64,000 bases of DNA from a bacterium (GTDB taxonomy: Bacteria > Patescibacteriota > Patescibacteriia > JBAXGH01): the NCBI GenBank assembly GCA_037139515.1, contig JBAXGH010000004.1, positions 7,514 to 71,513 of the forward strand. The letters run 5' to 3'. Shown here one piece after another: positions 4,875 to 61,918 of the stretch (positions within the stretch are counted from its first letter, which is position 1; each line of letters starts with the position of its first letter). The translations under genes were made by a program, and so were the position numbers. The notes below the pieces were generated by a model that worked only from the letters and a program-made list of their open reading frames with translations, did not search any database and was not told where the DNA came from.

Positions 4875-7286
4875 ATGGCGGAAACAAAACCAAGTGATGT
4901 CAAAATAGTCGAGAATCTGGAAGGCGAGATGATTGATATTTTCGAGGCACCCAGAAAAGAATTTTCGGATGCGGCAGAAGAACTGTTTGGGCTCGAAAAA
5001 TTTACTGATGAGTTAAAAGTGGCGGAGATTTCAGTCCGCAGCAAAATCCGCGATGATGTTGGGGAAAAAGGATATGCGGAAGAACTGTCTGCTGGAACTC
5101 TAGCTAAACTGTTAGCTTTTGGAGCAAAATTATTGTCCGCTAAAGACGGTTTGAAGACCGCAAATTTGGTTCGGGTGCCGGAAGAGGGGATGAAGATCGT
5201 TGGAGTAGAGGAAGATGGCAAAAAATTTGAGCGCCTACTTACAGTTGATGAACAGGATTTTATTTTTGATTTGGAACTGAGTGCCGAGCAAGAATTGATG
5301 GCGGAAAATGTTCGCAGATTCAAAGTTTTTTTGGATGAGACATCTAAACTTTTGGAGGGCAGAGAGATGGAGGATCGCGAAAAGGAACTCCGCTTTATTG
5401 TTCGGCAACACTATAAATTGCTCGGTTTTTCCGCACAGGATGTAGATGTGCTTTTGGCCTCCGCTGGTTCGGGAATTCCCGAATTACACCCTGGTTCCAA
5501 GCCTGATGTTGATCGATTAGAAATCATGAAGCGGGTTTGGAATGAATATCTGACTCGGGCCGATAAGGGAAAGACGGCGGCTTTTGCCGGGGCGATGATG
5601 TGCATGGGCGCTTTTGAAGGTATCGCACCGAAAATCAGCCAGCAGCTTTTTGACTCGCCGGATATGCAATCGGCGGCGCTTTTCGGAGCGGCTTTTATGC
5701 TCATGCATCAGGTTACGGGGCGTTCAAAGGCGTTCATCGAGGAAAAGTATGGAATATTTATGCATGGGATTCTTGAACGATCAGGCGGTCTTTACGATCG
5801 AATTGGTCGGGCAGTCGTGAATATTCCGGGAGAGCAATTCTCTGAATCTGGCATAATGGAAAGAGGGCGTGTTTTTAGTCACGGCGAAGCGGCAATCGAT
5901 TCGACTCTGCGAGACGTTGTTCAGTCGCAGATTCCACAAATCGTAAGCCTCGGAACTACGATCGCGCTCCTGATTCAAACCGATTGGAGGTATGGTGCAG
6001 CTTCTTTGGTTTCTCTGCCGATTTCGATGTATGTTGAAAAGAGAATGCAGCGCAGAGTTGATGATGATTTGGATAGAGTTCGTGAACTGGCAAGGGCTAG
6101 TGAAGAAAGAGGCGAGAGGCTGAAAAAGGCGCATATCGAGGTGGCGCTTTCGGGAATGAGAAACATCATGTCCGATGCATATAAAGAGCTGCGTCAGACC
6201 GGGAATCGAAGGTCCGAGGCAATGACGTCTGATAGGAATAAAGACCGGATCTTGATGACGGATCTGATTGATCCTTTTTTTAAGATGTGGACGGTGGTGC
6301 TCGGAGTGGCTCTGCGGGCCGCCGGAAGCGGGGATGCCGGCAAAATTATTATGGCTCTGCAGTCGACCGAAGTTTTTAAAGGTTCAATCATGAATCTGAG
6401 CCGACAATATTCAAGATTATTTAGGTCATGTCGAGACGTGGTGGCTTTTGAGCGCGATCTTTTGATAACCGATGTGGAAGAAGCGGCGGATAAGAATCGT
6501 TTACCGGTTCAAGAAGTTCAGGAATATGCGTTTGAGTTGAAGGGCGTTGATTTTACTCAAGGCGATGCTCGGATTATAAAAAACGCCAGTTTTCAGGTAC
6601 CCGGTGGGGCGGTGGTTCGGCTTTCGGGTGAAAGCGGCCATGGAAAAACTACCTTAACTAAATTAATCACGGGATATTTTTCGCCATCAGTCGGGAGCGT
6701 GCTGCTTGACGGTCGCCCGATTGGAAATTTTAAGAAATCCGGGCCGGAATCGATTTATACGCGCTTTGCGTATCTAAATCAGATACCTTATGTGGAAGAG
6801 ACAGGGACTTTGCGAACGAATTTGATGTTTGGGAATGTTTCTAATAGTGATGATGTTTCGGAGGAAGATGAGGCTTTGATGCGCGATGTGATTGCCAGGT
6901 TGGGGCTGACTTCAAACCGTTTTTTGAAGAATGGCGTGGTTAATTTAGATGAAAGTGTGCGTGGAGTTTCTGGCGGTGAGCGCCGGCGTATCGGAATTGC
7001 GCGATTGCTTATGCGTTTGCGTAAAATGAAAGACGGCGGACTTGTGGTTTTGGATGAGCCGGCTGACGGTTTATCGGAAGATATGGAGCTTGAACTCGCA
7101 CAATTTATTCGTGAGGAAAAATTACGAAACCCAAAACTGACTTTGATTGTGGTGAGCCATCGCAGTAACTTTGTGCGTGGAATCGAGGGGGCTGAAACCG
7201 AGAATCCGCTCAATGTTCAAGAGGTGAATGTGCACATGGGAACGATAGTCGACGAGCTGCCTAAAAATCAGAAACCGGTTTTGTGA
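4875..7286 (+). CDS. Atypical ABC-type ATPase with a large N-terminal domain (~540 aa) and predicted TM segments
   Basis: The C-terminal domain has Walker A GESGHGKTT, the signature VSGGERRRIGIARLL and Walker B LVVLDEPADGLSED. The N-terminal region matches nothing I recognise. Confidence 0.7.
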   Translation: MAETKPSDVKIVENLEGEMIDIFEAPRKEFSDAAEELFGLEKFTDELKVAEISVRSKIRDDVGEKGYAEELSAGTLAKLLAFGAKLLSAKDGLKTANLVRVPEEGMKIVGVEEDGKKFERLLTVDEQDFIFDLELSAEQELMAENVRRFKVFLDETSKLLEGREMEDREKELRFIVRQHYKLLGFSAQDVDVLLASAGSGIPELHPGSKPDVDRLEIMKRVWNEYLTRADKGKTAAFAGAMMCMGAFEGIAPKISQQLFDSPDMQSAALFGAAFMLMHQVTGRSKAFIEEKYGIFMHGILERSGGLYDRIGRAVVNIPGEQFSESGIMERGRVFSHGEAAIDSTLRDVVQSQIPQIVSLGTTIALLIQTDWRYGAASLVSLPISMYVEKRMQRRVDDDLDRVRELARASEERGERLKKAHIEVALSGMRNIMSDAYKELRQTGNRRSEAMTSDRNKDRILMTDLIDPFFKMWTVVLGVALRAAGSGDAGKIIMALQSTEVFKGSIMNLSRQYSRLFRSCRDVVAFERDLLITDVEEAADKNRLPVQEVQEYAFELKGVDFTQGDARIIKNASFQVPGGAVVRLSGESGHGKTTLTKLITGYFSPSVGSVLLDGRPIGNFKKSGPESIYTRFAYLNQIPYVEETGTLRTNLMFGNVSNSDDVSEEDEALMRDVIARLGLTSNRFLKNGVVNLDESVRGVSGGERRRIGIARLLMRLRKMKDGGLVVLDEPADGLSEDMELELAQFIREEKLRNPKLTLIVVSHRSNFVRGIEGAETENPLNVQEVNVHMGTIVDELPKNQKPVL

Positions 7287-15285: not shown

Positions 15286-15436
15286 TCCGCCTAGCCGCGC
15301 GGAGCCCTTGGCGCGGCGTCGTTGTCCTGGGCAGCGGCAAAGCAAAGCCATTTGCTTTGCCGGCGCTCCGCGTCGGCCGCGTCACGCGGCCTAGCGTCGA
15401 CTTCTGCCCGTTCGACTCCTATTTCCGCAAATAAGA

Positions 15437-15460
15437 AAATCAACCTTCAAAAGAAGGTTG
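15437..15460 (-). terminator. Intrinsic terminator downstream of tRNA-Gly
   Basis: tcaaccttcaaaagaaggttga hairpin, followed on the minus strand by TTTTCTTATTT. Confidence 0.5.
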
Positions 15461-15468
15461 ATTTTCTT

Positions 15469-15540
15469 AGCGGGTAAAGGGAGTCGAACCCTTGTGTAGG
15501 GTTTGGAAAACCCCCATAATAACCGTTATATGATACCCGC
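15469..15540 (-). tRNA. tRNA-Gly (anticodon UCC)
   Basis: Manual fold: acceptor stem GCGGGTA/TACCCGC, anticodon loop TTTCCAA, T-loop TTCGACT, discriminator U. CCA is not encoded. Confidence 0.8.
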
Positions 15541-15593
15541 ATGGGTATTTTTCTGTTTCGAAATTATACTCAAAGGTGGTTTTTTCGTCTAGT

Positions 15594-15977
15594 CTATGTT
15601 CGTCCGCAACTTTGGCATCTGGTTCCGTATGGTGAGGTGAAGCCGGTCATCGAGCCGTCATTGGCTTTTTGGCAGGTCAGGCAGTAGCTCTGTGCGATTT
15701 TATTGAAAATACAGATATAGCGCGGTTGACCGCTATCAAGCCTCGGCCCGTTTACAATGTGATGGTTCTTTAATAGGGTCAGTTCCTGAACGACTGAATT
15801 TCGGGTTAGGTGGAAACCTTTTCTAAATAGAAGAACTCGAATTTCTTCGATGCCGAAAGCGCGACTCTTAATTGCGAGGATTGAAATCAGCTCGCTTCTA
15901 AGCGGGCTCAGCGCATAGCCGGCATTCTGAAGTTTTCGCAAGATCAAGTTTGCAATCATACTAATCGTATTATACAA
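15594..15977 (-). CDS. Fur-family transcriptional regulator
   Basis: A winged-helix N-terminus (SPLRSELISIL...NSVVQELTLLKNHHIV) and a C-terminal HH/Cys cluster (CLTC...CQSC). Confidence 0.65.
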   Translation of the reverse strand: MYNTISMIANLILRKLQNAGYALSPLRSELISILAIKSRAFGIEEIRVLLFRKGFHLTRNSVVQELTLLKNHHIVNGPRLDSGQPRYICIFNKIAQSYCLTCQKANDGSMTGFTSPYGTRCQSCGRT

Positions 15978-16002
15978 AAATCACAGTTTCCTGTGACTCT
16001 TG

Positions 16003-16079
16003 TGGTCGGGCTGCCGAGACTTGAACTCGGAACCTTCTGCTCCCAAAGCAGACGCGATAGCCAATTACGCTACAGCCCG
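16003..16079 (-). tRNA. tRNA-Pro (anticodon UGG), CCA encoded
   Basis: Manual fold: C1-G72 acceptor stem, anticodon loop TTTGGGA, T-loop TTCAAGT, discriminator A, then CCA. Confidence 0.8.
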
Positions 16080-16305
16080 ATGATATGAGTGTTGCAGTTT
16101 TGTGGTCGGCGCGAATACGAGCCGCGAAGCGGCAGAATCCGGAACGATGACGACGAAAATAGCAATTTTCGATCGTTAGCGGAACGGATTCGAATCGCGA
16201 AGCGATTAAGTATTCGCGTTGCGGTTTCAAAAGTATTACCGAATGAAGCTGGGATGTATCGAGCAGGGCTCGATACACTCCTACCTTTTAAAAACCGCAT
16301 TCCTG

Positions 16306-16377
16306 TGCCGAAGGGCAGAGTCGAACTGCCTACGCCTGCCTCTTCAGGGCAGCGCTCTACCGGTGAGCTACTTCGGC
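16306..16377 (-). tRNA. tRNA-Phe (anticodon GAA)
   Basis: Manual fold: acceptor stem GCCGAAG/CTTCGGC, anticodon loop CTGAAGA, T-loop GTTCGACT, discriminator A. Confidence 0.8.
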
Positions 16378-16452
16378 AAGGGAATACGGTTTTTGATTGT
16401 GCCGTGACTGTCCCAAGGTCAGCCGATAACAGGTATGTTATCACCTAACCCT

Positions 16453-16528
16453 GGTGGGCGTGCCAAGAATCGAACTTGGGACCTCGTCATTATCAGTGAC
16501 GCGCTCTAACCATCTGAGCTACACGCCC
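16453..16528 (-). tRNA. tRNA-Ile (anticodon GAU), CCA encoded
   Basis: Manual fold: acceptor stem GGGCGTG/CACGCCC, anticodon loop CTGATAA, T-loop TTCGATT. It is not adjacent to the 16S gene. Confidence 0.8.
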
Positions 16529-16874
16529 GTGTTGTGAGTGATGTGGCCTGGGAGTTTTTACGCTAAATTCACGCAGTGAATTTTTATTGAACGATTGTGA
16601 TAGCCGAAAGCTTGCTTTCGAGCTATTCACAAGCGGTCAATAATTTCGCCGCAGGCGATTAGGCGTAAAAAAGTTTTGGCCGATTTCCGAACCGCGCGGC
16701 GGGTATCGATTGCAAGGCAATCGATACCTCTAGACTCCCGTCAAGATCCCTCGGCTTCGGGATGACAGCAAGGAGGGGATGGTGAATGGAAGGACTCTGC
16801 TTTTAGCCCGACTATCCTATCAAAACCTCGTCAGACAGGCAAGATGCGTGACGGGTCTGCTATAATAGTGGTCT

Positions 16875-18650
16875 ATGGAGGCAAAAAAGGAGGTTAAAAA
16901 TGGTGAAATATTCAAGTTCTTTTTTAAGCATGCCTGGCGATACAAACTTGCCTGTATCTGCTCGTTTTTAGTAGTTACCTTGGCCGTCTCAGGTGATTTA
17001 ATGTCACCTTGGTTCCAGAAAAATTTATTTGATCTGCTCACGAAAAATTCGCCCTCAAAAGAACTGCTGGGCGCTCTCGCGGTTGCTCTCGCCTGGGTAT
17101 TTGCCGCACGCATGATCGGTTGGGTAGGTTGGCGCTCATGGGGCTTTCTTCAGGTTTGGTTTCAGCCGAAAGTCATGGCTGATCTTCAGCAAACCGGTTT
17201 CGAAAACATGATCGGTCATTCGCACGACTTTTTTTCGAATGCTTTTTCCGGTTCTTTGGTTCGCAGAATTTCAAGAGTCGGGCGTGCTTTTGAAGGTGTG
17301 ATGGACGAGCTTTTTGCGAATCTATGGCCGACGGCTCTTGTAATCGTTGCCGCTCTTTTTGGCCTATATTCTCGCTTTCCAAGCCTCGCTTACATCTTCG
17401 CGGCTTTTATTGTGGTATTTATTGTTTTGAACTATCTCGCAACGATGTGGAAGATGAAGCTCGATGTGTTGCGCTCAGAAATGGATTCGAAGGTGACCGG
17501 TACGATTTCCGATGCAATCTCAAATAGTAGTGCGGTAAAGCAATATAGCGGCGAACTTTTTGAGGCCAGATTGATTCGTAATGTTTTAAATGCTTGGTCT
17601 GACCTGTATACGCGTGGCTGGCGAAGAGGTGAGTATGTGACTGCGGTTCAGGCTTTCGCTATGACAGTCATCAATATCGGAATCATGTGGTACAGCGTAA
17701 ATTTGTGGGTATCTGGAAGACTTTCAATTGGTGATTTGGTGCTGATTCAATCTTATCTTGGTATGGTCATGGATAAACTTTGGAATATCAGTCGATCATT
17801 CCGAAAAGTTTATGAGAGCCTTGCCGACGCTCGCGAAATGGTTGAAATCATAAATACCGAATACGAAGTTAAAGATGCTCAGGATGTAAAAAAACTTGCT
17901 GTAAAAGCCGGCGCCATTGAATTCCAAAATGTCGGCTTCGGTTTTAAAGAAGGTCGCAAAATACTGAAAGATTTTTCGCTTGCGATTAAGCCCGGAGAAA
18001 AAGTCGCGCTCGTCGGTCCATCGGGTGCCGGAAAATCGACGGTCACAAAGTTGTTGTTCCGCTTGTACGATATTCAAAAAGGCCAAATCATGATCGATGG
18101 TCAGGATATCGCGCAGGTGACGCAAAAAAGTTTGCGTGAAAATATCGCGCTCGTGCCGCAGGAGCCGGCGCTTTTCCATCGCACTCTTCGCGATAATATT
18201 CGCTATGGTCGCCGCAATGCGACGGATAAAGAAATCATCGAGGCAGCCAAAAAAGCGCATTGTCACGAGTTTATTTCAAAGCTTAAAGATGGCTATGATA
18301 CTTTCGTCGGCGAACGCGGCATAAAATTATCGGGCGGCGAAAGACAGCGCGTCGCAATCGCGCGAGCTATCTTAAAAGATGCGCCGATTTTGGTGCTCGA
18401 CGAAGCAACTTCAAGTCTAGATTCCGAATCCGAGCGTTTGATTCAGGACGCGCTACACGAATTAATGAAAGGCAAGACTTCAATCGTAATCGCGCACAGG
18501 CTTTCGACGGTTATGGAAATGGATCGGATTATCGTAGTTGAAAACGGTGAAGTGAAAGCGACCGGTACACACGATGAATTGCTCGGTGAAAAAGGCATGT
18601 ATCGAAAGCTCTGGAATATTCAGGTTGGCGGGTATGCCGGGAACGGTTGA
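16875..18650 (+). CDS. ABC exporter, fused permease and ATPase (MsbA/MdlB-like)
   Basis: An N-terminal six-TM region, Walker A GPSGAGKST, the signature LSGGERQRVAIARAIL and Walker B ILVLDEATSSLD. Confidence 0.85.
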   Translation: MEAKKEVKNGEIFKFFFKHAWRYKLACICSFLVVTLAVSGDLMSPWFQKNLFDLLTKNSPSKELLGALAVALAWVFAARMIGWVGWRSWGFLQVWFQPKVMADLQQTGFENMIGHSHDFFSNAFSGSLVRRISRVGRAFEGVMDELFANLWPTALVIVAALFGLYSRFPSLAYIFAAFIVVFIVLNYLATMWKMKLDVLRSEMDSKVTGTISDAISNSSAVKQYSGELFEARLIRNVLNAWSDLYTRGWRRGEYVTAVQAFAMTVINIGIMWYSVNLWVSGRLSIGDLVLIQSYLGMVMDKLWNISRSFRKVYESLADAREMVEIINTEYEVKDAQDVKKLAVKAGAIEFQNVGFGFKEGRKILKDFSLAIKPGEKVALVGPSGAGKSTVTKLLFRLYDIQKGQIMIDGQDIAQVTQKSLRENIALVPQEPALFHRTLRDNIRYGRRNATDKEIIEAAKKAHCHEFISKLKDGYDTFVGERGIKLSGGERQRVAIARAILKDAPILVLDEATSSLDSESERLIQDALHELMKGKTSIVIAHRLSTVMEMDRIIVVENGEVKATGTHDELLGEKGMYRKLWNIQVGGYAGNG

Positions 18651-18707
18651 CGTGGCCACTAATTTTGTGGTATATCGGGACGCGTCAATTGTGACGCGTT
18701 CCTTTTT

Positions 18708-19979
18708 TTGGAGGCAAGGATGCCCACTCATGAATACAATGGTGAAATGAGTGAAGCGCCTTTCGGGGGGCTTCCGATCGAGCCGTCAGGGGCTCGGTGT
18801 ATTGGCATGACGATCGAAGAGATTGCGCTCGAAGTCTTGATGGATGAGCCGGAGCTTCAGGAGAAAGCTCGCGCCTTCTTCAGGGCCAAGCAGGAGTCGC
18901 TCAGTTTGATCATGACGAGCAAGGCTGTTCAAAGGCTTTCCGGTTTGCGGATCTATGGTATTAAGTACGATCCGCGGCTCAACCTGAATGTCTCGATTCA
19001 CGACGACATGAGGCGGATCAAGGAAACGCCGTGTGCGCAGAGCCGGCTTTTCTTCATCCGTTTCATCGCCGGGCACTTTGTTGCGCTCGGCATCAGGATT
19101 GGACTGCTCGAGAACGTGCTTATGACCGGACTCATCGGCGTCATTCTGCACGATATCGGCCAGCCGGCTTTTTGTCCTGATGGTGACGCCCTGCTTGTTG
19201 AGCTCGGGCACGACCATCATGACAAACGGAGTGCTCGTCTCATCGCGGAGGACTCGGAAGTCATGCTCGCGATTCGGCGGGCCGATGTGGAAGTTGAAGA
19301 CGTCATTCAGATGATTCGCGGCAAGGGAGAGCTTTCGGTCCTGCGCGGCATCTCTATCCTTATCGGGTCAGTGGTTCTGGATGGTGAAATCACGGGGTAC
19401 GGACCCGGCATGGAGTTCTCGCGCAAGGTTAGGAAAACCATTCACGGCTTCGAGAAGAAGCATCTGAAGGTTTCGGACCAGGTGCATCTGAGCCAGCTTC
19501 TCAGTCATCGCACAGAGCTCTTGCGGAAAGTCTACTGCCACCCGTATAACCTGGTGGCCTCGTCGGCTTTCCGGTATGTCGTGAAGCATCTTGTTTCCGA
19601 ACATAAGTTTCCGATTAGGCTGATCGAATACGGCTCTGATGCGGAGGCGGAGGCCGGAATCGCGGGGACGATGAAGAGTATCCAGGGCGTGGTGCAGGAT
19701 TGGATTGTTTCTGCGCACAAATTGGGTCTCGGGAATCTTTACGAGATCCAGCGTTGGAAGATGCAGAAGTTCTTTACCCATGATAAGCATCGTGCATTCC
19801 TTGTGCACGCGGACCAGGGAGTCGCGGCGCGCACTTTTTCACTCTCGCCGGTCGACTTCACCGGTCGCGTGATCGACGTGGAGCTTCCGGATGGTCGCAG
19901 AAAAGCTCTGCGTGCCGATTCTGACTCGCTCCCGGAAGATGATCGCTTCTATCACACGCTCACCTGGAAAATGAGCTAA
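18708..19979 (+). CDS. HD-domain phosphohydrolase family protein
   Basis: GVILHDIGQ (an H..HD motif). Higher-GC gene with a GGAGGCAAGG ribosome-binding site. Confidence 0.6.
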   Translation: MEARMPTHEYNGEMSEAPFGGLPIEPSGARCIGMTIEEIALEVLMDEPELQEKARAFFRAKQESLSLIMTSKAVQRLSGLRIYGIKYDPRLNLNVSIHDDMRRIKETPCAQSRLFFIRFIAGHFVALGIRIGLLENVLMTGLIGVILHDIGQPAFCPDGDALLVELGHDHHDKRSARLIAEDSEVMLAIRRADVEVEDVIQMIRGKGELSVLRGISILIGSVVLDGEITGYGPGMEFSRKVRKTIHGFEKKHLKVSDQVHLSQLLSHRTELLRKVYCHPYNLVASSAFRYVVKHLVSEHKFPIRLIEYGSDAEAEAGIAGTMKSIQGVVQDWIVSAHKLGLGNLYEIQRWKMQKFFTHDKHRAFLVHADQGVAARTFSLSPVDFTGRVIDVELPDGRRKALRADSDSLPEDDRFYHTLTWKMS

Positions 19980-20079
19980 CAGCGCCCCTCCCGCCAAGCT
20001 TCGGCCGCGGGAGGTTTTTATTTGGGTCGAGTCTTGACTTTTGGTTTTTTTGATGTAATATCTCGTTTGGAGGTGAACC

Positions 20080-20616
20080 ATGGTTCACGAATCACTTGAT
20101 GGAGATGTCGAAGTTGATGTGGGTGATGGATTTGAATGTGCCTATGCAAAGGTGCTCGACCTGCTGCCGGAGGTGCGGCAAATGCCGGCCAAGGATTTCT
20201 TGCCGCGCACAGTGATGACTGACGACCTCGTGACGACGGTTCAGGATTATCTGAACAAGCTCGAGGGCGTCAATGAGAGGATGAAGCGAGAGCGGGCAGC
20301 AGAAGCGCGCACTGCGGCGCTCAAGGATATGGGCGTCAAGCATCTCTCGGAGACGATTGATTTGCTTGATCCTCGGGTACAGCAGGTGGCCGAGTTTCCG
20401 TCGCCACTCACGCCGACCTACTGTCGAGATCGCTGCGTCTTCCTTCTCCGCGACCCCGCGAGGCTTGAAGAACCACTCATCGTCGTGGGTGATGGTTTCT
20501 TGGACAAGGGTGTGGTTTGTGATGTGAAGAACCTCATCGAACGGGAAGCGCACGTCGCGGTCACCTTCGCGGATGATGTTCGTTCCGAGATTCGTCGGCG
20601 TCTGCAGATGAAGTAA
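20080..20616 (+). CDS. Hypothetical protein (178 aa; no recognisable motif)
   Basis: GGAGGTGA ribosome-binding site. Higher-GC. No recognisable motif. Confidence 0.5.
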   Translation: MVHESLDGDVEVDVGDGFECAYAKVLDLLPEVRQMPAKDFLPRTVMTDDLVTTVQDYLNKLEGVNERMKRERAAEARTAALKDMGVKHLSETIDLLDPRVQQVAEFPSPLTPTYCRDRCVFLLRDPARLEEPLIVVGDGFLDKGVVCDVKNLIEREAHVAVTFADDVRSEIRRRLQMK

Positions 20617-20717
20617 CTTCTTTTCGGCTCAGACCACGCGGCCCTGCGATTCACTCGCGCGGCCGCTTTTTAATATCCGGCGTCACGCGGTATAATAATG
20701 TTGAAGGATTCCGCTTT

Positions 20718-23700
20718 ATGGGTTCGGAGCTTGGTGTTGAAAATATTCTTGAACGCGAGCCGGATCATCGCGACACGCCAATAACAGAACCGCTTGAAAA
20801 ATTGCGGCGTGTTTTGGATACGGTCACGAAGGCGGAAAATATTCATAAAAAAGCACTCGAGGCTAATCAAAAAAAGGAAAAAGAGGCTGATGCGAGGTTG
20901 CATTCGCTGCGTGAAAAATCGACTGTTGAGCAGTTGGAGCATTTTGTCGGATTTGAAAAAGATCCGGAGTTTTTGGCTAAAATAGATGAGATAACTCAGA
21001 AGCTGGCTAAGGCCGCCGGGTTCACCAGAAAAGTGAAAACGATTTCTGTTTCCGGTGATACCATTAACGCTTTTGTTTATGTAGATAAATCGCCGGGTTC
21101 GAACGAGGACGCGCCCGGTGTTTATACCGGCTCACAAAATGAAGGGCATATTGTCTTTTTATATACCGGACTTGTAACCAAGCTTGCTGAACATTTAGCA
21201 AAGCAGGGAAAGAAACTCAACGAGGGTCATATAGCGGGTGTTTTAGCTCACGAGATGCGCCATCTGATTCAACAAAAAGAAAAAAGAAGCGAAAAAGTGA
21301 CCAGAAAACAGGAAGAATATGATGCTGATTTGGGTGGCGTCGAGTTGATGGGGCGTGCCGGGTATAGTCCGCGAGACGTGGTCGAGACGATGGACTTCTT
21401 AAAAGAGCTTTCCAAACGAATGCCGTATTCCAAGTCGCATCCGGCGGCCGCTAGTCGTATTGTCGAAATTTCAGGCCGGATTTCTAATCCTGATTTGCCG
21501 GTGCCCGGCATTGAAATTCCGAGTGTTGAACTTACGGCGCTTCCAAAAACCCAAACTTACGAAGGTAGATTCGATGAAAGTTTTGAAGCTTCGAAACCTG
21601 GGGGCGAGGTTACTGATTTTGTGCGCAATCTTTTGAGCAATTCCGAATCGATGTTTGATTTGCACGTTAAAAGATCTATCGCTTCAAGTGCGATAGATCT
21701 TGCATTTGCGAAAGAATTTGTGAACAGGCCTGAGATTCCGGGATTTTTCATGCAATATCTGCTTTTGGAAGGTCGGGCGGCGGAACAAGAAATTCAGAAT
21801 GAAGAAACTGTCATAAAAAATATCGAAGATGACGTTCTGGGTCTTGAAGCTAAGAAAATGTCAGGCGGTATCAGTAATGAAGAAGAATATAAACTCAATG
21901 AGTGGAAAGAAAGTATTCGCTTTCATCAAAAAAGTCTCGCTAGGGCTAAGCTTGGTGGCGATTCGCGTCTGCAGCTTACATATAATCTGACGCACGAATC
22001 GCGGCTCAAAGCTTGGGGTGGGGAACTTCCGCGGCTTGATTCCGAGGCTTCGCTTAGAATGCAGAGTAACACTGAGGAAAAGATTAACCGTGAAAAGTTT
22101 TTAGTTGAGAATGGATCATTAGCCGGTGGTCGCGAAGAAGCTCATTTGGAAGTTAAAGCTAATCAAAACGTAAATTGGGATGAGGCGGCTTCTGAGTGGT
22201 TAGCTGGAAAAGGTTTTTCAGGTGTTCATAAAGACACTCTTGAACTTGGTTATAAGCGAATTCAGGCTTCTTTTAAGAATGCTCAATCTAATAAAGATGA
22301 GTTGGTTAAGGGATTTGCTTTCGAGCTTGATAGGATGAATAGGCTGGAAGGCCTCGCGAAAGAGCAGGAATCGCGGCGACTGAGCGCTGTAGTTGCGGAT
22401 GATTTTAGGAATAAGTTTCAGGAAATACTTGATGCTGATCTGCCAAAAGATATTCCGGATAGCGAGCGTGCTCAAATATATGAACTATTTGCCGGAGCCT
22501 TTGATCCGATTCAATTAAGCGAGCCCGGCGCGAAAGCGGTTTTGGAATTTTTGAAAAAAGAGATCTTCGATAATAATTCGATAGATGTGGGCGGAAAGGC
22601 TGGAACGTTGACTAGCCAAAAGCCTGCAAGATTCAATTTGTATTATGTCGTTCGCGCGGTGGTCGAATCCGGGGTCAGTTTGGACGCCGAGTACTTAAAT
22701 AAAACAATCAGTGAACTTAAAATAAAATGCCCGGCTGAGATTTCCGCTTTCGAGCGCTTAGAGAAACTTAACCGTGAAACGCGGCTTTTGAGTGAGGAGG
22801 GCACAGCCGCGGGATATTATCTGGATACTGGTAGTAAACTACCTTCGGCCGAGCGTGATATTCTGAGAAAAAAAATAGTTTCTAACCTTTCTCGTTCGCA
22901 TCGGGATGTTTTTGGTTTTTTAATCCTTGCCTATGGTCTGTATCTCCCGAAAGATGGATTTCTGGATAAGGAATCATCGGCGCTTTTCTTGATTAAACTG
23001 ATTAAGGATGGCTACGACGATCATGTCATGACCGGTGTTCTTGGAAAACTCCAGGAGAAATCGCCGAGTGACAGAGAGACCAGACTTCGTATCGGCTCTT
23101 TGTATGATAGGCTGAAAAATCCAAGACGAAATACATATGATGCGTCGGGCAGCGAACTGGATTCGCTGTTGGAATTTATTAAAGCGGAAGGGATTCCGCT
23201 TCCAGAGGCGCTCGCCGAAGTCTATCGTCATAACCTTGAAGGCTCAGACGTATTTTTGGAGTATAAAAAACTTTGGCAGAACGGCGACCTGAAGGGTGCG
23301 GATTTAAGAAAATACTATGAGCTTATTCGCGGCATCGAAAGACGAACCAACGATTTCGGTTACGAACCGCATGCACACGGCATTCTGGCGTTCATTTCGG
23401 CGGAGCATTTTGAGAAAACTGATCCGGTCTTTGCTGCGAAAATCGTGGATGATCAGATGGGCGAATATAAATATAGTGAAAAAATTTATGAAGAGAAGCT
23501 TTCTTTTGAGCAAATAATTGCAGATTTCCCGAAAGGAAAACTTCGTAACGGTTTGCTTCATGATTGCTGGAAACGCAATGGTGCGAGTATTTCTGACTTT
23601 GAAAAGTTGAGCCCATTTTTCACTGAGGAACCGGAATCTTATGGGATGAAGGGTGAAAATAATCTCGGAGCTGGTTTTGTGATTATCTTCGGTAATAATA

Positions 23701-25970
23701 TCGAAGAGGGAAGCTTTGGCGGTAGCACGGAGGCTCAGAATAGTTATCGTGCGCGTGAGCAGAGCGGCGAAATGGTTGATTATAACTCCGGGCATTGGTA
23801 CGCAGATATAGATCGTCTGGGTTGCCTAGAATCCATCTACGCAAAACAACCAGAATATTTGCTGGATACCAAAAAGACATATTTAGAAAACAAAAAGAGA
23901 ATTCTTGAACTCTGCCCGAAATCACAATTTCGAGATTATCTTTTGATGAAAGCACTTGGTCTTGAGGTTCAGGGGAAACGTGGACTCTCGCGTGAATTTT
24001 CGATTTCACCGCTTGCTGATCGGCTGAATAATCCTGCTTTAATTGGCGCCACTGAAAATTCGGTTAATTTTATTGATACCTGGAAGTTTCCGGAAATGAC
24101 CCCGGCAATTTCAAAATATACTAAGTTTACGGAAAAAGCACGTGAAATTTTCAGCGAGCTTCGTTCCGATGATGCAAAAGATTTGCTTACAAGAATGGTT
24201 CTTGATAACGCGCCGAAAGATCTGCCGGAGCTTGAACTTCTTCGAATTACCGAATTTTATCCGGAGCCCTGCGTAGCGCGCGATGATTATCTGAAGAAGT
24301 TCATGCTTCGGAATTCTCTGAGCATTGAAAAGATTCAGGAGTTGCGCAAACTTTTCACGACCGAAGCGTTGCGTGGCGGGGAAGTTCCGCAAATGAAGAT
24401 GCTCGGACTGGAAGTCGCAAGAACCGAAGGGCGGCGACTCAAGAATAAAAAACGCAGTGATTATGTGAACTGGATTTTGGGCGTCGATAAGTATCCGCCG
24501 ACCGAAATGATGAATGCTGGCGGTGCTTTTGGTTTTTCTTTTGAAAGTATTCGCAACGGATTTGCGGGCTTAACCGAAACCGAACGCGAGCGTTCTTTTG
24601 ATGAGCTCCTTTTGCATGATGAGGGAATGCTGGATCCGAAGACTCCGGAGGATCACGAGGCGATGGATAATTTTTTGCGAAAAGTTTATCGCGAAAAATT
24701 TTCGGCTAAGAAAAATACAGAAGCGGAGGCGGAAAATGATATTTTTGAAAAAGTCTTCATGACGGTTTTTCAGAATTTCATTCCGGAGCGTCGAGCGAAA
24801 CTATTTTCCGCACTTTATTCGGCGATGAAAGATAAAAAAGGCGAGAGAATGGAATTCGAAGAGCTTGCCGGCACGTTTCTGGAACAAATTGGCGCCGTTG
24901 GAATCAAACTTGGCCAGATTCTTTCATCGAATGATAATTTACCTTTCAGCCGTGAGAATAAACCGATGCCGAAAAAGCTAAAAGATCGTCTGAAGCGGTT
25001 AAAAGATGGTGTTAGGCCGTTCTCAGTGATCGGTTCCGCTCAGCGCCTGGTTGATTTTGGTCTTGATAAGCAAGTCAAAACAATCGACGGACTCCTTGCC
25101 GCCGCTTCAATCAAGCAGGCGCATTCGGTAACGCTTGCGAACGGCGAGCGCGCGGTTTTGAAGGTGCGTCGCCCGGTTATCGATGATGTTCGCAATGATT
25201 TTGAGGTTCTGGGCGCGGTCTTTAAGGTTTTGAACGAAAATGGTTATCAGGTGCCAAAGTATCTATTGTCTGAGCTCGAAACCATCATTGCCGACGAAGC
25301 TGATTTCACCAAAGAGGCTTCAAACCAGCAGTTGCTTAGCGAAAATATGCCCGAGAGAGTTGGCGGCATGAAGGCGAAGACTCCGGAGATTAGCGCTACC
25401 GCGAGAGGCGTTATGCTTGAAAGGTTTGCTTCCAGCACACCGTATGAAAAATTCAAAAACAAGAATCCGGAAGAAGCTGGCAGAATTTCCGGCGATCTTG
25501 GGCTCGAGATATTGCGCGGGCTCACGAAGACCGGCGTTCTGCACGCCGATTTGCATGACGGAAATATTTTTGTCGATGGTGCCGGAAAAGAAATGACTCT
25601 GATTGACGCCGGTGCCGTTGCCGACATCAGAAAAGTTCAAAAATCAGTGCTCAGGATTTATAAAGGTCTCTCGATGAAAAATAGTCGCATGGTCGCGAAG
25701 TCGATTATCGCGCTTTCGGAGAAGTCCGACCTGGATGCAGAAGCCCTTGCCGGTTCACTCGAAGCAATCGTGAATAGCGGTGAAGGCGTTGATAAAAAGG
25801 CCACCAAACTTTCGTTTGAAATTCTTAATTCGGTTAATCCCGGACCGGAATTGCGATACTTTTTGAAAGCGCTCGCGACCGGCGGACATCATATCGATAA
25901 GATAGATGCGACGAAACCGAAAAATGCGTGGGAACTCGCAAAAGCCGGTGTTAGAATCATGGCTTCTTAA
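20718..25970 (+). CDS. Giant protein (1750 aa) with an N-terminal HExxH zincin-like motif, a long helical middle and a C-terminal UbiB/ABC1-family atypical kinase domain
   Basis: LAHEMRHL at ~aa 180. The C-terminus has AAASIKQAHSVTLANGERAVLKVRRP, VLHADLHDGNIFV and LIDAGAV, which matches the ABC1/UbiB kinase signature. Confidence 0.8.
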   Translation: MGSELGVENILEREPDHRDTPITEPLEKLRRVLDTVTKAENIHKKALEANQKKEKEADARLHSLREKSTVEQLEHFVGFEKDPEFLAKIDEITQKLAKAAGFTRKVKTISVSGDTINAFVYVDKSPGSNEDAPGVYTGSQNEGHIVFLYTGLVTKLAEHLAKQGKKLNEGHIAGVLAHEMRHLIQQKEKRSEKVTRKQEEYDADLGGVELMGRAGYSPRDVVETMDFLKELSKRMPYSKSHPAAASRIVEISGRISNPDLPVPGIEIPSVELTALPKTQTYEGRFDESFEASKPGGEVTDFVRNLLSNSESMFDLHVKRSIASSAIDLAFAKEFVNRPEIPGFFMQYLLLEGRAAEQEIQNEETVIKNIEDDVLGLEAKKMSGGISNEEEYKLNEWKESIRFHQKSLARAKLGGDSRLQLTYNLTHESRLKAWGGELPRLDSEASLRMQSNTEEKINREKFLVENGSLAGGREEAHLEVKANQNVNWDEAASEWLAGKGFSGVHKDTLELGYKRIQASFKNAQSNKDELVKGFAFELDRMNRLEGLAKEQESRRLSAVVADDFRNKFQEILDADLPKDIPDSERAQIYELFAGAFDPIQLSEPGAKAVLEFLKKEIFDNNSIDVGGKAGTLTSQKPARFNLYYVVRAVVESGVSLDAEYLNKTISELKIKCPAEISAFERLEKLNRETRLLSEEGTAAGYYLDTGSKLPSAERDILRKKIVSNLSRSHRDVFGFLILAYGLYLPKDGFLDKESSALFLIKLIKDGYDDHVMTGVLGKLQEKSPSDRETRLRIGSLYDRLKNPRRNTYDASGSELDSLLEFIKAEGIPLPEALAEVYRHNLEGSDVFLEYKKLWQNGDLKGADLRKYYELIRGIERRTNDFGYEPHAHGILAFISAEHFEKTDPVFAAKIVDDQMGEYKYSEKIYEEKLSFEQIIADFPKGKLRNGLLHDCWKRNGASISDFEKLSPFFTEEPESYGMKGENNLGAGFVIIFGNNIEEGSFGGSTEAQNSYRAREQSGEMVDYNSGHWYADIDRLGCLESIYAKQPEYLLDTKKTYLENKKRILELCPKSQFRDYLLMKALGLEVQGKRGLSREFSISPLADRLNNPALIGATENSVNFIDTWKFPEMTPAISKYTKFTEKAREIFSELRSDDAKDLLTRMVLDNAPKDLPELELLRITEFYPEPCVARDDYLKKFMLRNSLSIEKIQELRKLFTTEALRGGEVPQMKMLGLEVARTEGRRLKNKKRSDYVNWILGVDKYPPTEMMNAGGAFGFSFESIRNGFAGLTETERERSFDELLLHDEGMLDPKTPEDHEAMDNFLRKVYREKFSAKKNTEAEAENDIFEKVFMTVFQNFIPERRAKLFSALYSAMKDKKGERMEFEELAGTFLEQIGAVGIKLGQILSSNDNLPFSRENKPMPKKLKDRLKRLKDGVRPFSVIGSAQRLVDFGLDKQVKTIDGLLAAASIKQAHSVTLANGERAVLKVRRPVIDDVRNDFEVLGAVFKVLNENGYQVPKYLLSELETIIADEADFTKEASNQQLLSENMPERVGGMKAKTPEISATARGVMLERFASSTPYEKFKNKNPEEAGRISGDLGLEILRGLTKTGVLHADLHDGNIFVDGAGKEMTLIDAGAVADIRKVQKSVLRIYKGLSMKNSRMVAKSIIALSEKSDLDAEALAGSLEAIVNSGEGVDKKATKLSFEILNSVNPGPELRYFLKALATGGHHIDKIDATKPKNAWELAKAGVRIMAS

Positions 25971-25982
25971 CTTTAGAAAAAT

Positions 25983-26801
25983 ATGGAACCAAATGAGCAT
26001 ACGGGATTTAGTGATGTAAAGGATTCTCAGCGTGAGCCGACGGTTGCAAGGGCTCCAGATATTGATAAGCCTCATGCGGAGGAACCCGCTGAGCTGAAAC
26101 ATCGGCTCGCGTCGATGAAACGCGAGGATTTTGCTGAATATTTGATACATCATGGAAAAGAATTTGGTGAGATGGTTCAGATTCCGAGGTTTGGATCAGA
26201 CGTAAATCAGGTCTATGGAGTGATTACGAGAAGACCGGAGTTTCGCGGTCTTTCGGAAAAAGAAATCGATAAAGCGGTCAAGCCTTTGGAAGATGAAGTA
26301 TCGGGACCGTCACAGGTCTTTGGAATGCCACAGGTGATTCGTTCAATTAGAATTCAGGAAGAAACAAAAAATAGAGAAAATGTCGTTTATGAGTTTTCCG
26401 GCGCGTTCTTGAGTTGGAAATTTCGTAATGGCTCGACGGAAGACGTAGCTCATAAAAAAGCCTGGATTACGCTTCCAGATCCGCTTCATGAAATTACACC
26501 GCAACTAATAGGTAATGTGATTGAAGCTATCGTAGCTTCAGGTTTTTCAGGAAACCTGAAAATATTAAATCGCACCAAAGCAATAGTCAGACGCTACGAG
26601 AATATCACTATTCATGCGGATAACGATGAAGAACTCGATAAAGCGCAAAAAGCTGCGGTTCATGCCTTGCTCTTGGATGGCGTTATGCCGCAGGGTGTAG
26701 CGCGAGGACAGGATTCGGTCGAAATGTCTGATAATCAACTCTTGGCGGGAAAAATCTGCAAGGCGCTGACGCCAAATGGCAAAATAACCTGGTGGTTTTA
26801 G
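25983..26801 (+). CDS. Unknown-domain protein, paralog A (one copy of a ~250-aa domain)
   Basis: Shares ELK(H/R)RLASMKREDF...VITRRPEFRG...HKKAWITL.DP..EITP...TIHADNDDE.DKAQKA...PQGVARG with the two domains of the next gene. Confidence 0.6.
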   Translation: MEPNEHTGFSDVKDSQREPTVARAPDIDKPHAEEPAELKHRLASMKREDFAEYLIHHGKEFGEMVQIPRFGSDVNQVYGVITRRPEFRGLSEKEIDKAVKPLEDEVSGPSQVFGMPQVIRSIRIQEETKNRENVVYEFSGAFLSWKFRNGSTEDVAHKKAWITLPDPLHEITPQLIGNVIEAIVASGFSGNLKILNRTKAIVRRYENITIHADNDEELDKAQKAAVHALLLDGVMPQGVARGQDSVEMSDNQLLAGKICKALTPNGKITWWF

Positions 26802-26890
26802 GCGGACATCACATTGATAAAATTGATGTGAGCGATCCGAAGAGCGCTCAGGAACTCGCAAAAGCCGGTGTCAGAATCATGGCTTCTTAA
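26802..26890 (+). repeat. Duplicated 3'-end fragment of the giant gene (would encode GGHHIDKIDVSDPKSAQELAKAGVRIMAS*)
   Basis: Near-identical to 25881-25970 (GGHHIDKIDATKPKNAWELAKAGVRIMAS*). It is followed by the same spacer-and-start arrangement (ATGGAACCAA...). Confidence 0.6.
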
Positions 26891-26902
26891 TCTTAGAATA
26901 CT

Positions 26903-42632: not shown

Positions 42633-43763
42633 TCAAGGCTTGAGCTTATTATCGGCGCCGATGGCTTCGGAGATATTTTTAAACCCGTCACGCTTCAAAA
42701 GCTCAATCAATCCGGCATTGATCTCGCCGACTAACTGTGGTCCTTCAAAAATCATACCCGTAATGAGTTGGAGCAGGGAAGCGCCGGCGCGAATTTTTAG
42801 GTAAGCATCTTCGGCGCTAAAAATGCCGCCGCAACCGACAAGCGTAAATCGCGAACCGTATTTTTTATATAAGTGTGAGAGTTGAGCGTTGGCTTTTTCT
42901 TCGACGAGTTTTCCGGAAAGTCCACCGTGAGTCGGGCGCAGCGCCTCGGGAACGGCTTCGTAGGTTTTGGTGAGATTGCTCGAAATCAAGCCTTGAATTC
43001 GGTGGCGCGCGGCGACATCGATCAGCGAATCAAGCTGTTCAAACGTCAGATCCGGTGAAAGTTTTATAAAGATAGGCCGTGGGCCGTAGGCCGTAGGGCG
43101 TAGGGAAACATTTTCGAGCGCAGTGAGCAGCTTTTCTAAGCGCGGGGCATCATTAAAAGGTTGGCCGCCGAATGCATTCGGGCAGCTGATATTGATTGTT
43201 ATGTAATCAGCGGTATCTTTTACGGCTTCCAGGGCGGCGCCATAGTCCGCAATCGCGGCTTCGTCTTCGGCGGTTTCGGCGCAATTAGTTTTAGCGATAC
43301 TTACTCCGACCGGAAAACGATGAGACACGGCGTGTAAACGAACCGCGACATTCGCCGCGCCTTCGTTCTTTAAACCATACCAAACCACAAGTGATTGCTG
43401 ATCTTTGAGGCGCCAGAGCCGCGGTTTTGGATTTCCCGCGCAGGTTTTTCCTGTGACTGATCCGGCTTCCATAAAGCCGAATCCAACGTCAGGCAAAATA
43501 TTTAAAAGATGAGCGTCTTTATCAAAACCGGCGGCGAGTCCAACCGGATTTTTAAATTCAAGTCCGCGAATATTTTGGACGAGCGACGGGTCTTCGATAT
43601 GAAAAGCTAAGCGAGTGAAAAATCGAGTCACCGAAAAGCGCCCGAGAAACTCGCCGAGGTGAGTCATCGAATCATGAACATCTTCCGGGTCGCGGCGAAA
43701 GAAAAGCGGTTTGGCTAGATTTTTGTAAATGAATCGTGATGTGGCGTGAAAAACTTTTTTCAT
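42633..43763 (-). CDS. pyrD: Dihydroorotate dehydrogenase (quinone type) carrying an in-frame repeat insertion
   Basis: A DHOD family-2 layout (NPVGLAAGFDKDAHLLNILPDVGFGFMEAGSVTGKTCAGNPKPRLWRL; GGIFSAEDAYLKIRAGASL). The segment SLRPTAYGPRPI is encoded by the GGCCGTAGG repeat at 43075-43105. Confidence 0.85.
   Translation of the reverse strand: MKKVFHATSRFIYKNLAKPLFFRRDPEDVHDSMTHLGEFLGRFSVTRFFTRLAFHIEDPSLVQNIRGLEFKNPVGLAAGFDKDAHLLNILPDVGFGFMEAGSVTGKTCAGNPKPRLWRLKDQQSLVVWYGLKNEGAANVAVRLHAVSHRFPVGVSIAKTNCAETAEDEAAIADYGAALEAVKDTADYITINISCPNAFGGQPFNDAPRLEKLLTALENVSLRPTAYGPRPIFIKLSPDLTFEQLDSLIDVAARHRIQGLISSNLTKTYEAVPEALRPTHGGLSGKLVEEKANAQLSHLYKKYGSRFTLVGCGGIFSAEDAYLKIRAGASLLQLITGMIFEGPQLVGEINAGLIELLKRDGFKNISEAIGADNKLKP
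43075..43105. repeat. GGCCGTGGGCCGTAGGCCGTAGGGCGTAGGG repeat, in frame within pyrD
   Basis: The same 31-mer family occurs at 36815-36845 and 62008-62037. Confidence 0.65.
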
Positions 43764-58000: not shown

Positions 58001-58171
58001 TCTTTCTCGAAAAATCAGCAGATTTTATCGAGAATCAATGGATCCTCGATACCCCGGATTCGCTGTCCGGGGTTCGAGGAAGACGTCATTGGGTACGTCT
58101 ATTTCCGAGTATTAAAACGGTCTCACGAACAGGCCTTTACGGCCTGTTTGTTTTTGGTTCCGGGTTTTTAA
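55022..58171 (+). CDS. MoxR-like AAA+ ATPase, large form. Its 3' end is probably corrupted by an insertion, so the true stop is uncertain (before ~57980).
   Basis: Walker A ITLEGESGTGKTS and Walker B/sensor VAFLDELNRLTNDQASAFLTALD. The last ~65 codons overlap ncRNA-like copy B and read through by chance. Confidence 0.7.
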   Translation: MKFDFESVAKNASEYPGEASSNKRPRRKVAEMSTPEKAQLLWDSYQDLKTVWRAFLIQKKESTGDQNTVLKHLAHLTDANDDLAKEFKASSLAQKLLKQVKDLYSEPEVQVTFKSNQENYRKQWDGVNGKWKEFSALREEIKELEAEYDDLERERFDERGKPEVQKRRTLKYDIANSKKSLEAAREAEKTLLSENRELSLRVLSETLDERRSELRQGDGFMWFPSRRLILEKLEDKIAEARTLRVITLEGESGTGKTSFADAAAVKLTREHLVASPVARADMKVDRALFADEKIAPEGSRTAYQEVLRAITGKVGPEKPIQHSGRVAFLDELNRLTNDQASAFLTALDSMKVGGETRYALNDADPKDKVQGRALVLAAQNPAGETFPDRTVFSPEVERKQQKVQVSYFNQTPEDPELYEALLVSMMDADGRILAAKSDLAPAFTDPEISPDGKTKQSKLKIEDASGGALWRFSNFLHEIYENFYRRPNLLTKSNPDAWLKRHVLTPGDAIEWLTKYTEILEERENLQNYLSNRLREWIEEKMRGNADVEEKRLYLELAQKFVFLTPSGDTVTDSNSATQSIMTKREIAEMSPRIPRAIEGLVEAPKNDEQENRIMNLEMIDGTKLNRVSFRFSATKVLQNGFEGPGGKELRFIGHIVTCGDKPELKGMVLLEEIGRPERKIVATSKQANKMFELFSNKKVERKEATDEIEARKIFGKDFLGRQEVKALFDVDVPETKIPYSAVELKEAQKEGMMLVYRIDKDAKGKKLDMTAIDAMALARCGTKGQKAFIPPNDGSRNELFFTDSPRAGWKLVSKELLGMKDGKPIGKVEDQSMNKDYLAETKVLIKYAVKHKLLNAQELTECSDAELDKVARTIFSGKTMQELVDSQNDVEWKFAAEFLSSLKVNEKLRRTPAEVLYDMVLHLHANGDRLLSGVYDRANRRNSSGSLAYLGDFDASGLGVSWHRPDGARPNIGVCVSRNVSHFNKRDRSKTTSFSKNQQILSRINGSSIPRIRCPGFEEDVIGYVYFRVLKRSHEQAFTACLFLVPGF
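57977..58157 (+). ncRNA. Candidate structured small RNA, copy B
   Basis: The same conserved 5' module as 45162-45245. Outer inverted repeat cgagaccgtt/aacggtctc. It ends in the acaggcctttacggcctgt hairpin plus TTTGTTTTTGG. Confidence 0.35.
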
Positions 58172-58189
58172 TCCAACCGCCAAGCATTT

Positions 58190-58489: not shown

Positions 58490-58496
58490 TTGAAAT

Positions 58497-59374: not shown

Positions 59375-59377
59375 AAT

Positions 59378-61897: not shown

Positions 61898-61918
61898 GAG
61901 CTGATATAATACTTATAT

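Follow-up and report, generated by a model that had tools for sequence, protein, structure and literature searches.

What might a bacterium do with a single protein that carries an M48 metalloprotease domain near its N-terminus and a UbiB-type ATPase domain at its C-terminus? The question is raised by a giant gene at 20718 to 25970 (+) of a stretch of contig JBAXGH010000004.1, which is 64,000 nucleotides long and is called the window here. An earlier, sequence-only reading of the window had seen in this gene one 1750-amino-acid (aa) protein with an HExxH motif and a C-terminal ABC1 domain, in an architecture that it found unfamiliar. This description held: the open reading frame (ORF) is single, intact and uninterrupted, runs from an ATG through 1750 codons to a stop codon, and encodes both Pfam domains with scores above their cut-offs. 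Immediately 5' of the gene there is a TATAAT-like -10 element, together with the ribosome-binding site GAAGGA. The protein is 100% identical to the database protein P0001, which NCBI names 'MAG: AarF/UbiB family protein [bacterium]' (MAG, metagenome-assembled genome), and a separately named ENA metagenome-assembly contig encodes an identical protein.

Judged from its sequence, the giant is an intact fusion of an M48 protease and a UbiB-type ATPase, built from known parts in a combination that is itself new. The architecture is far beyond chance, since both Pfam matches pass the curated thresholds and the same architecture, Peptidase_M48 and ABC1 with no other Pfam domain, was present in 23 of 23 aligned members of the family, which come from independent metagenomes.

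The two catalytic modules

The N-terminal module (aa ~75 to 262; 20940..21503, +) was identified as an M48 metalloprotease domain of the BepA/3c37 type, from Pfam and from a family profile compared with solved structures. Peptidase_M48 (PF01435) scored 42.9 bits in the giant protein, against a cut-off of 20.3. The profile, built from 14 family members (A6), matched the structures of the M48 peptidase 3c37 (E 5e-17) and of BepA (6ait, E 1.6e-12) along almost all of the domain, the solved M48 chains being aligned over 165 of the profile's 187 positions. The string LAHEMRHL, which had been noticed near aa 180, sits at aa 176 to 183, and by the Pfam and profile matches its HExxH belongs to a genuine M48 domain and is not incidental.

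All four landmarks of the BepA/3c37 domain were found in the giant. These are the NAF edge-strand motif (aa 117 to 119, +; placed by alignment and a hallmark present throughout the family), HEMRH with the zinc ligands and catalytic base (H178, E179 and H182; 21249..21263, +; invariant in the 23 members), EYDAD, which aligns to the ExxAD of 3c37 and BepA (aa 200 to 204; 21315..21329, +; E200 as third zinc ligand and D204 as partner of the plug arginine), and HPAAASR, an HPx4R autoinhibitory-plug motif that aligns to 'THPLPESR' of BepA (aa 241 to 247; 21438..21458, +; H241, P242 and R247). H178, E179, H182, E200, A203, D204, H241, P242 and R247 were invariant in the 23 members, although these share only 17 to 31% identity, and the HExxH, ExxAD and HPx4R motifs were found in all 25 members scanned.

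It has been shown for BepA, in the study that defined the HPx4R motif and the function of the plug, that H246 serves as a fourth zinc ligand and keeps the enzyme latent, that the R252-D205 pair fixes the plug in position, and that activation is licensed by the membrane, the alpha6-lid between HExxH and ExxAD unlocking the enzyme by inserting into the outer membrane (PMC13655028). Counted along the profile alignment, H241, R247 and D204 of the giant fall on H246, R252 and D205 of BepA. However, the spacer from HExxH to the third-ligand glutamate, which holds the long alpha6-lid in BepA (~60 residues), is 18 residues in the giant and 16 to 44 across the family. As aligned, the alpha6-lid region is thus almost absent from the giant M48 module while the plug is kept, which means that the plug has been retained but its usual release device is largely gone. 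Together, the aligned and conserved residues showed the N-terminal module to be a catalytically complete M48 zinc metalloprotease, predicted to be self-inhibited.

Beyond this domain the likeness to BepA ends. BepA has a signal peptide and a tetratricopeptide repeat (TPR) domain, neither of which hydropathy or Pfam detected in the giant, and the M48 domain of the giant is N-terminal within a cytoplasmic-looking protein of 1750 aa. With the NCBIfam BepA model (NF052400), for which the cut-off is 570, the score was 16.3 bits, and with the signal peptide, the TPR and the long lid all missing, the giant was rejected as a BepA-type M48 protein. A likeness to the defence protein family Lit/U49 was also considered and set aside: it came from a sub-threshold NCBIfam match (E 0.055) over aa 174 to 211, around the HExxH, and the PADLOC models were negative. 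The homologue P0002 carries a precomputed Pfam U49 match.

The C-terminal module (aa 1347 to 1750; 24756..25967, +) was assigned to the UbiB/ABC1 atypical kinase-like ATPases from Pfam, NCBIfam and PDB alignments. ABC1 (PF03109) scored 88.5 bits against a cut-off of 22.9 over aa 1460 to 1661, the UbiB model TIGR01982 was the best NCBIfam model and aligned over aa 1347 to 1688, and a PDB sequence search with the module matched Rv3197/MABP-1, COQ8A/B and MSMEG_1954. The UbiB fold was found complete with its N-terminal helical extension. While an ABC1/UbiB match had rightly been noted in the last ~330 residues, its extent had been underestimated, the homology covering ~400 residues from aa ~1347.

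The strings AAASIKQAHSV, AVLKVRRP, HADLHDGNIFV and LIDAGAV, on which that match had been based, are present and align to the A-rich loop, the catalytic lysine, the catalytic loop and the DFG equivalent of COQ8A and Rv3197. From N- to C-terminus, the module has the UbiB-specific KxGQ motif as KLGQ (K1397 and Q1400; 24906..24917, +; invariant in the 23 members and aligned to KLGQ of COQ8A); the A-rich loop that replaces the Gly-rich loop, AAASIKQAH (25098..25124, +; AAAS at aa 1461 to 1464, with A1463 and K1466 invariant and S1464 in at least 90% of members), aligned to AAASIGQVH of COQ8A and ASASIGQVH of Rv3197; the ATP-binding lysine K1482 in VLKVRRP (25161..25163, +; invariant, aligned to the lysine of VAMKIQYP in COQ8A); the alpha-C glutamate E1527 (25296..25298, +; invariant, aligned to the glutamate of ELDY/ECDY in Rv3197/COQ8A); the catalytic loop HADLHDGN with D1611 and N1616 (25542..25565, +; D1611, H1613 and N1616 in at least 90% of the 23), aligned to HGDAHPGN of Rv3197; and IDAG with the metal-binding D1630, the DFG equivalent (25602..25613, +; in at least 90% of members), aligned to IDFG/LDFG. 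The lysine and aspartate arrangement of a kinase-like active site is therefore not lacking, the full catalytic set being aligned and conserved, and these residues showed the C-terminal module to be a catalytically complete UbiB-type protein-kinase-like domain, predicted to be an ATPase. The loop HADLHDGN and the DAG differ from HxDxHPGN and DFG, which we take to be the usual forms from the Rv3197 and COQ8A alignments and from the E. coli UbiB sequence. Further differences from COQ8A/ADCK3, E. coli UbiB, Rv3197 (MABP-1) and MSMEG_1954 are that the giant has no transmembrane (TM) anchor, scores below the UbiB equivalog cut-offs, and has its UbiB domain preceded by a conserved helical module of ~200 residues and fused to a protease.

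In characterized proteins, KxGQ is invariant in UbiB and its glutamine holds a water molecule that is a possible nucleophile for ATP hydrolysis. In COQ8 and UbiB the KxGQ and A-rich motifs accompany an ATPase activity that cardiolipin membranes and phenolic lipids stimulate, in place of protein phosphorylation, and an active site that protein substrates cannot enter (10.1101/149823). UbiB proteins are linked to the handling of isoprenoid lipids, and two of them, Cqd1 and Cqd2, control the distribution of coenzyme Q (10.1101/2020.12.09.418202).

Neither a signal peptide nor a TM segment, both of which the earlier reading had raised as a point to be checked, was found in the giant protein: the N-terminus is hydrophilic in a sequence and hydropathy scan, and no segment reached TM-grade hydrophobicity (maximum KD19 1.32). 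Its Pfam matches included no RTX or other repeat domain and no AAA+ domain, and the PADLOC defence-system models matched neither the giant protein nor six of its neighbours. The protein thus looks soluble and would be either soluble or peripheral to a membrane.

The middle region and the family

Between the two modules lies a family-specific region that is predicted to be an all-alpha scaffold (aa 263 to 1149; 21504..24164, +), followed by a conserved helical module ahead of the UbiB domain (aa 1150 to 1346; 24165..24755, +), which is conserved more widely than any other part of the middle. The middle region had no Pfam, NCBIfam, PADLOC or PDB sequence-profile match. An AlphaFold2 model of aa 262 to 1345, made with three sequences, was all-helical with low confidence (predicted local distance difference test, pLDDT, 45; predicted template modelling score, pTM, 0.27), and its fold was not used for any inference. 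The middle had been described as ~1100 residues of helical, low-complexity sequence; the helical part agrees with this low-confidence model, but low complexity does not apply, as no residue fell inside a low-entropy 20-residue window and the region aligns with its homologues. Its whole-length alignment was obtained only with the ~8 closest relatives, with conservation that was continuous but lower, lowest at aa 400 to 1000 and rising from aa ~1150. The segment at aa ~1190 to 1345 (profile positions ~935 to 1100) was the only part of the middle recognized in all ~33 relatives. Modelled jointly, the module at aa 1150 to 1346 and the UbiB domain gave a pTM of 0.82, which is consistent with the two forming one compact unit.

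A weak internal repeat was detected between aa ~927 to 1020 and aa ~1171 to 1250 (hhalign probability 68%), the copies sharing an 'FPxxxxRDxLL'-like motif. Three copies of the pattern 'h-x-x-h-x-(F/C)P-x3-4-R-D/N-x-L-L' were also seen at aa ~937, ~1063 and ~1179 (window positions 23496 to 24470), and this suggests that the scaffold is built of repeated helical modules.

To find relatives, the profile of the middle region was run exhaustively with HMMER (E<=1e-3) against 1.84 billion representative proteins. Only 33 were found, in keeping with the unusual character that had been ascribed to the architecture. Nearly all are 1750 to 1955 aa long, a few are 2377 to 3436 aa, and four are short and probably fragments. 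Two of the three longer members tested (P0017 and P0028) have the same domain order with 1300 to 1500 residues between the domains, and in the third (P0020) only ABC1 was found at the threshold used. As aligned, the two modules are always kept ~1200 to 1500 residues apart, in the same order and on one chain, and the residue conservation across the family showed both catalytic modules to be under purifying selection.

All members come from metagenomes or MAGs and have automatic names only. A full-length word-indexed homology search returned three proteins, and when the profile of the middle region was used in the same type of search, nothing but the query came back. A metagenome scan with a 10-member alignment gave three full-length loci, all of one lineage, and a pattern-limited scan of GTDB species representatives gave three carriers, with unverified labels of Bdellovibrionales (L004), 'uncultured bacterium' (L005) and Planctomycetales (L006). 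No family member was found in a scan of viral contigs, which yielded a single M48-only match, and a viral origin was rejected on this ground.

Some of the homologue loci had features of their own. The most distant relative (L006, 97 to 7685, +) encodes more than 2529 aa on a short contig, with ~400 extra N-terminal residues, a C-terminal extension that runs off the contig, and a single in-frame TAG at codon 1219 (a sequencing error, a pseudogene or a split gene). In L005, a MAG named 'AlinenLipids', a second giant ORF of 1839 aa (15401 to 20920, +) comes directly after the M48-UbiB homologue; its one likeness, to HATPase_c, is faint, and it is unrelated to any gene of the window. A LOOT RNA (Rfam RF03000; 56.6 bits against a gathering threshold of 46.4) was found in L001 at 6062 to 6194 (-), 4 kb upstream of the gene for P0002, and the Rfam scan of the homologue loci detected no rRNA.

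A putative lipid-gated protease and its alternatives

The reading that we favour, tentatively and at somewhat less than even chances, is that the giant is a bifunctional enzyme that works on its own, is soluble or peripheral to a membrane, and has a UbiB ATPase that responds to lipid and licenses the latent M48 protease or positions it. The UbiB module would bind a membrane or an isoprenoid/quinone-type lipid and hydrolyse ATP, this event would be transmitted through, or positioned by, the scaffold, and the M48 site would then be unplugged or brought to its substrate, so that proteolysis would be licensed only at a particular lipid surface. The giant would in this way be an ATP- and lipid-gated quality-control or regulatory protease, with its free-standing parallel in PGM48/sll1280 and ABC1K on plastoglobule and cyanoglobule surfaces. 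That it would act by itself is favoured by the lack of a TM helix or signal peptide and by the neighbourhoods of its relatives. When the window and six other loci (L001, L002, L004, L005, L006 and L022) were compared by tblastn and all-against-all blastp, none of the genes near the giant gene (encoding 423, 178, 272, 518 and 981 aa, and an ABC exporter) was found beside a giant homologue, and the contexts of the other loci were unrelated to one another.

Two known systems bear a partial likeness to such an enzyme. On plastoglobules and cyanoglobules, an M48 protease occurs together with ABC1Ks and is co-expressed with them (PMC12223511; 10.1101/2021.02.05.430006). This pair, PGM48 (sll1280) and ABC1K, brings the same two enzyme families to one lipid surface, and the giant may be its 'Rosetta-stone' form; the comparison is by family membership only, between separate proteins in photosynthetic organisms and a fusion in a Patescibacteria-like cell. 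Lipid droplets are not known from Patescibacteria. The other system is FtsH, in which an HExxH metalloprotease (M41) and a nucleotide-hydrolysing module (AAA+) are likewise joined on one chain. Here the likeness is one of logic: the ATPase of FtsH is AAA+ whereas that of the giant has a protein-kinase-like fold, the order and spacing of the modules differ, and no unfoldase activity is implied.

A candidate ligand of the UbiB module is suggested by a gene elsewhere in the window (42633 to 43763, -), which encodes a quinone-dependent class 2 dihydroorotate dehydrogenase with scores above the equivalog cut-offs (NF003652, 344 bits against 267; TIGR01036, 290 against 200). Given this enzyme, the organism probably uses a membrane quinone. 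Several points weigh against the proposed mechanism, however, and the first concerns this ligand: Patescibacteria are generally regarded as lacking quinone biosynthesis, which makes the identity of the lipid uncertain. Contact or communication between the two modules is deduced from their fusion, a transmitter or spacer role of the middle has no usable model behind it at a pLDDT of 45, and with no TM segment the association of the giant with a membrane is unproven. The plastoglobule parallel is one of co-localisation and co-expression and would not extend to a protease-ATPase mechanism. Finally, one report describes some ABC1K proteins as true protein kinases, so that kinase rather than ATPase chemistry is possible (PMC8956952).

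It could be, although we consider it rather doubtful, that the scaffold does no more than bring two independent enzymes, a protease and an ATPase that handles lipids, to one membrane domain or lipid body, with no allostery. Two modules that are both predicted to be active, held apart by a constant long spacer, also fit such tethering; the activities on plastoglobules and cyanoglobules belong to separate proteins that have no more than the surface in common, and the middle region diverges fast, as would be expected of a spacer. The M48 module itself is harder to reconcile with it, as this clade has an intact plug but has lost nearly all of the lid that normally releases it, and some other part of the protein can therefore be argued to activate the protease. 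In addition, both modules are co-inherited in every full-length member tested, which suggests that they depend on each other functionally.

Another explanation, which we judge unlikely, is that the giant is a host-directed effector, exported by an episymbiotic cell of the candidate phyla radiation (CPR) through a non-Sec route and acting on host proteins or membrane lipids, e.g., in lipid or quinone scavenging. The genome is Patescibacteria-like: the best named matches of the RpoC fragment at the start of the window were to Candidatus Uhrbacteria, Patescibacteria and Magasanikbacteria, at no more than 62% identity, which agrees with the CPR origin guessed by the sequence-only reading. Patescibacteria are typically host-dependent, and one relative comes from a MAG labelled Bdellovibrionales, an order with predatory bacteria (label unverified). 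Moreover, the giant gene lies among lineage-specific genes without a family match, including one for a 981-aa charged-helix protein, an MsbA/HlyB-like ABC exporter is encoded 2 kb upstream, and the missing Sec signal would be compatible with export of the type I, III, IV or VI style. However, that exporter gene is closed by a strong terminator (18677 to 18702) and separated from the giant gene by two further genes, and it is missing from the other six loci. No neighbour is conserved, secretion-system genes were not seen beside any member of the family, signal peptide, TM segment and RTX-type repeat are all missing from the protein, and its KxGQ motif and A-rich loop are features of housekeeping lipid-linked ATPases. 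With no export signal of the classical kind, no RTX or other repeats and no conserved exporter linkage, none of the criteria applied here speaks for a secreted effector or type I substrate, although a secreted, host-directed role is conceivable. An operon-like surface or effector module, as which the surroundings had been interpreted, also failed to find support: the same-strand run from 18708 to 31648 exists, but it starts after the terminator, and it holds no neighbour conserved in the six loci around a protein without signal peptide or TM segment.

That the giant is a canonical UbiB, i.e., an accessory factor of ubiquinone biosynthesis with extra domains, seems very improbable. The database names 'AarF/UbiB family protein' and 'ubiquinone biosynthesis protein', the rank of TIGR01982 among the NCBIfam models and the quinone-dependent dehydrogenase in the window all point that way, but the scores were far below the equivalog cut-offs (125.8 bits against 487.55 for TIGR01982, and 67.1 against 667 for PRK04750). 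Furthermore, the C-terminal TM region of E. coli UbiB is missing, no ubi genes were found among the profiled ORFs of the window or in the other loci, and the domain sits inside a protein of 1750 aa that also contains a protease. That the ORF is chimeric or mis-called, two unrelated genes having been joined by an assembly or frameshift error, is next to inconceivable and in effect disproved, because the architecture recurs: although the sequence is MAG-derived and the distant relative L006 has an in-frame TAG, the aligned proteins show the full-length architecture in 23 cases from independent samples and sequencing projects, an identical protein is found on a separate ENA metagenome contig and in NCBI, and conservation is continuous along the whole length.

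Returning to the licensed protease, a wider claim could be built on it, that the fusion is a 'Rosetta stone' by which UbiB-family ATPases are revealed as regulatory partners of M48 proteases; we regard this generalization as quite unlikely. If true, it would define a new type of ATP- and lipid-gated protease that runs on a protein-kinase-like engine instead of AAA+, free-standing pairs (ABC1K and PGM48 on plastoglobules, possibly also UbiB-family proteins and OMA1 in mitochondria) would cooperate likewise, and the giant could govern the handling of scavenged isoprenoid lipids in a quinone-using, biosynthetically poor CPR cell. UbiB/ABC1 proteins are ancient and disease-linked, M48 proteases have recently been shown to be latent and unlocked at membranes, and a conserved M48-UbiB fusion offers both a testable hypothesis of their joint action and a test system on a single polypeptide. 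It also brings to light a family of proteins of ~1800 residues, in which a region of ~900 residues (aa 263 to 1149) has no sequence match to a protein of known fold. No paper was found in the literature that links M48 and UbiB as a fusion or describes the giant family; the M48-UbiB combination, the region at aa 263 to 1149 and the lid-less, plug-bearing M48 domain are undescribed in the literature found. The automatic name 'ubiquinone biosynthesis protein' is misleading in organisms that are not expected to make ubiquinone, and is corrected here.

Neighbouring genes and other features of the window

Directly downstream of the giant gene, 12 nt from its stop codon, begins the first of two paralogous genes (25983..28459, +) without Pfam or PADLOC match. 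They encode 272 aa and 518 aa, the longer protein consisting of two copies of the same module. Their paralogy had been recognized from the sequence and was confirmed, with 54% and 29% identity between the 272-aa protein and the 518-aa protein. A tandem duplication with a period of ~910 to 920 nt has produced three copies of the 272-aa module in this interval. It has also left a relic at 26801..26912 (+), with 82% nucleotide identity to 25881 to 25992, which comprises the 3' end of the giant gene, the spacer behind it and the beginning of the next gene. The last ~30 codons and the stop codon of the giant gene are found there as non-coding sequence (26801 to 26890) between the 272-aa and 518-aa genes, encoding GGHHIDKIDVSDPKSAQELAKAGVRIMAS where the C-terminus of the giant has GGHHIDKIDATKPKNAWELAKAGVRIMAS. 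The two paralogous genes are probably co-transcribed with the giant gene and are not conserved partners of it.

The 423-aa gene upstream (18708 to 19979, +) had been taken for an HD phosphohydrolase. By eye it has an HD-like stretch, 'LHDIG...GHDHHD', but this identity was rejected, since apart from the 'LHDIG'-type string there was no Pfam (E<=10), NCBIfam or PDB match. The 981-aa gene (28703 to 31648, +), also without family match, encodes a ~150-residue stretch rich in E, K, R and A (aa 156 to 309) with KEKELAEQ-like repeats, which accounts for the strong purine skew of the region. Of the coiled-coil protein that had been proposed here, the charged helical stretch stands, and it is probably a long charged helix or a coiled coil.

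Further observations were made elsewhere in the window. A run at 55022 to 63073 holds possible conflict or defence genes, which encode a 1049-aa AAA_5 (dynein/McrB-like) ATPase, an AbiEii nucleotidyltransferase toxin, a transglutaminase-core protein of 839 aa and a Clp/AAA_lid_9 ATPase. A complete 16S rRNA gene of 1497 nt lies at 33424 to 34920 (-), with no 23S rRNA gene directly downstream, the next feature being a 299-aa ORF (32370 to 33269, -). This ORF is flanked by two copies of a 16-nt palindromic hairpin, CCGCCCTTTCGGGCGG, at 32350 to 32365 and 33292 to 33307; on the minus strand, one copy follows the ORF and the other the 16S gene, and each is succeeded by a T-run. Compared by eye with the primer sequences, the 16S gene has what we take to be non-standard bases in the 515F and 806R regions (GTGCCAGCAGCAGCGG; ATTAGATACCTGCGTAGTCC), and common amplicon primers may miss this organism. 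Four tRNA genes (Gly-TCC, Pro-TGG, Phe-GAA and Ile-GAT) are located at 15469 to 16528 (-), between the genes for a P-type cation ATPase and the ABC exporter.

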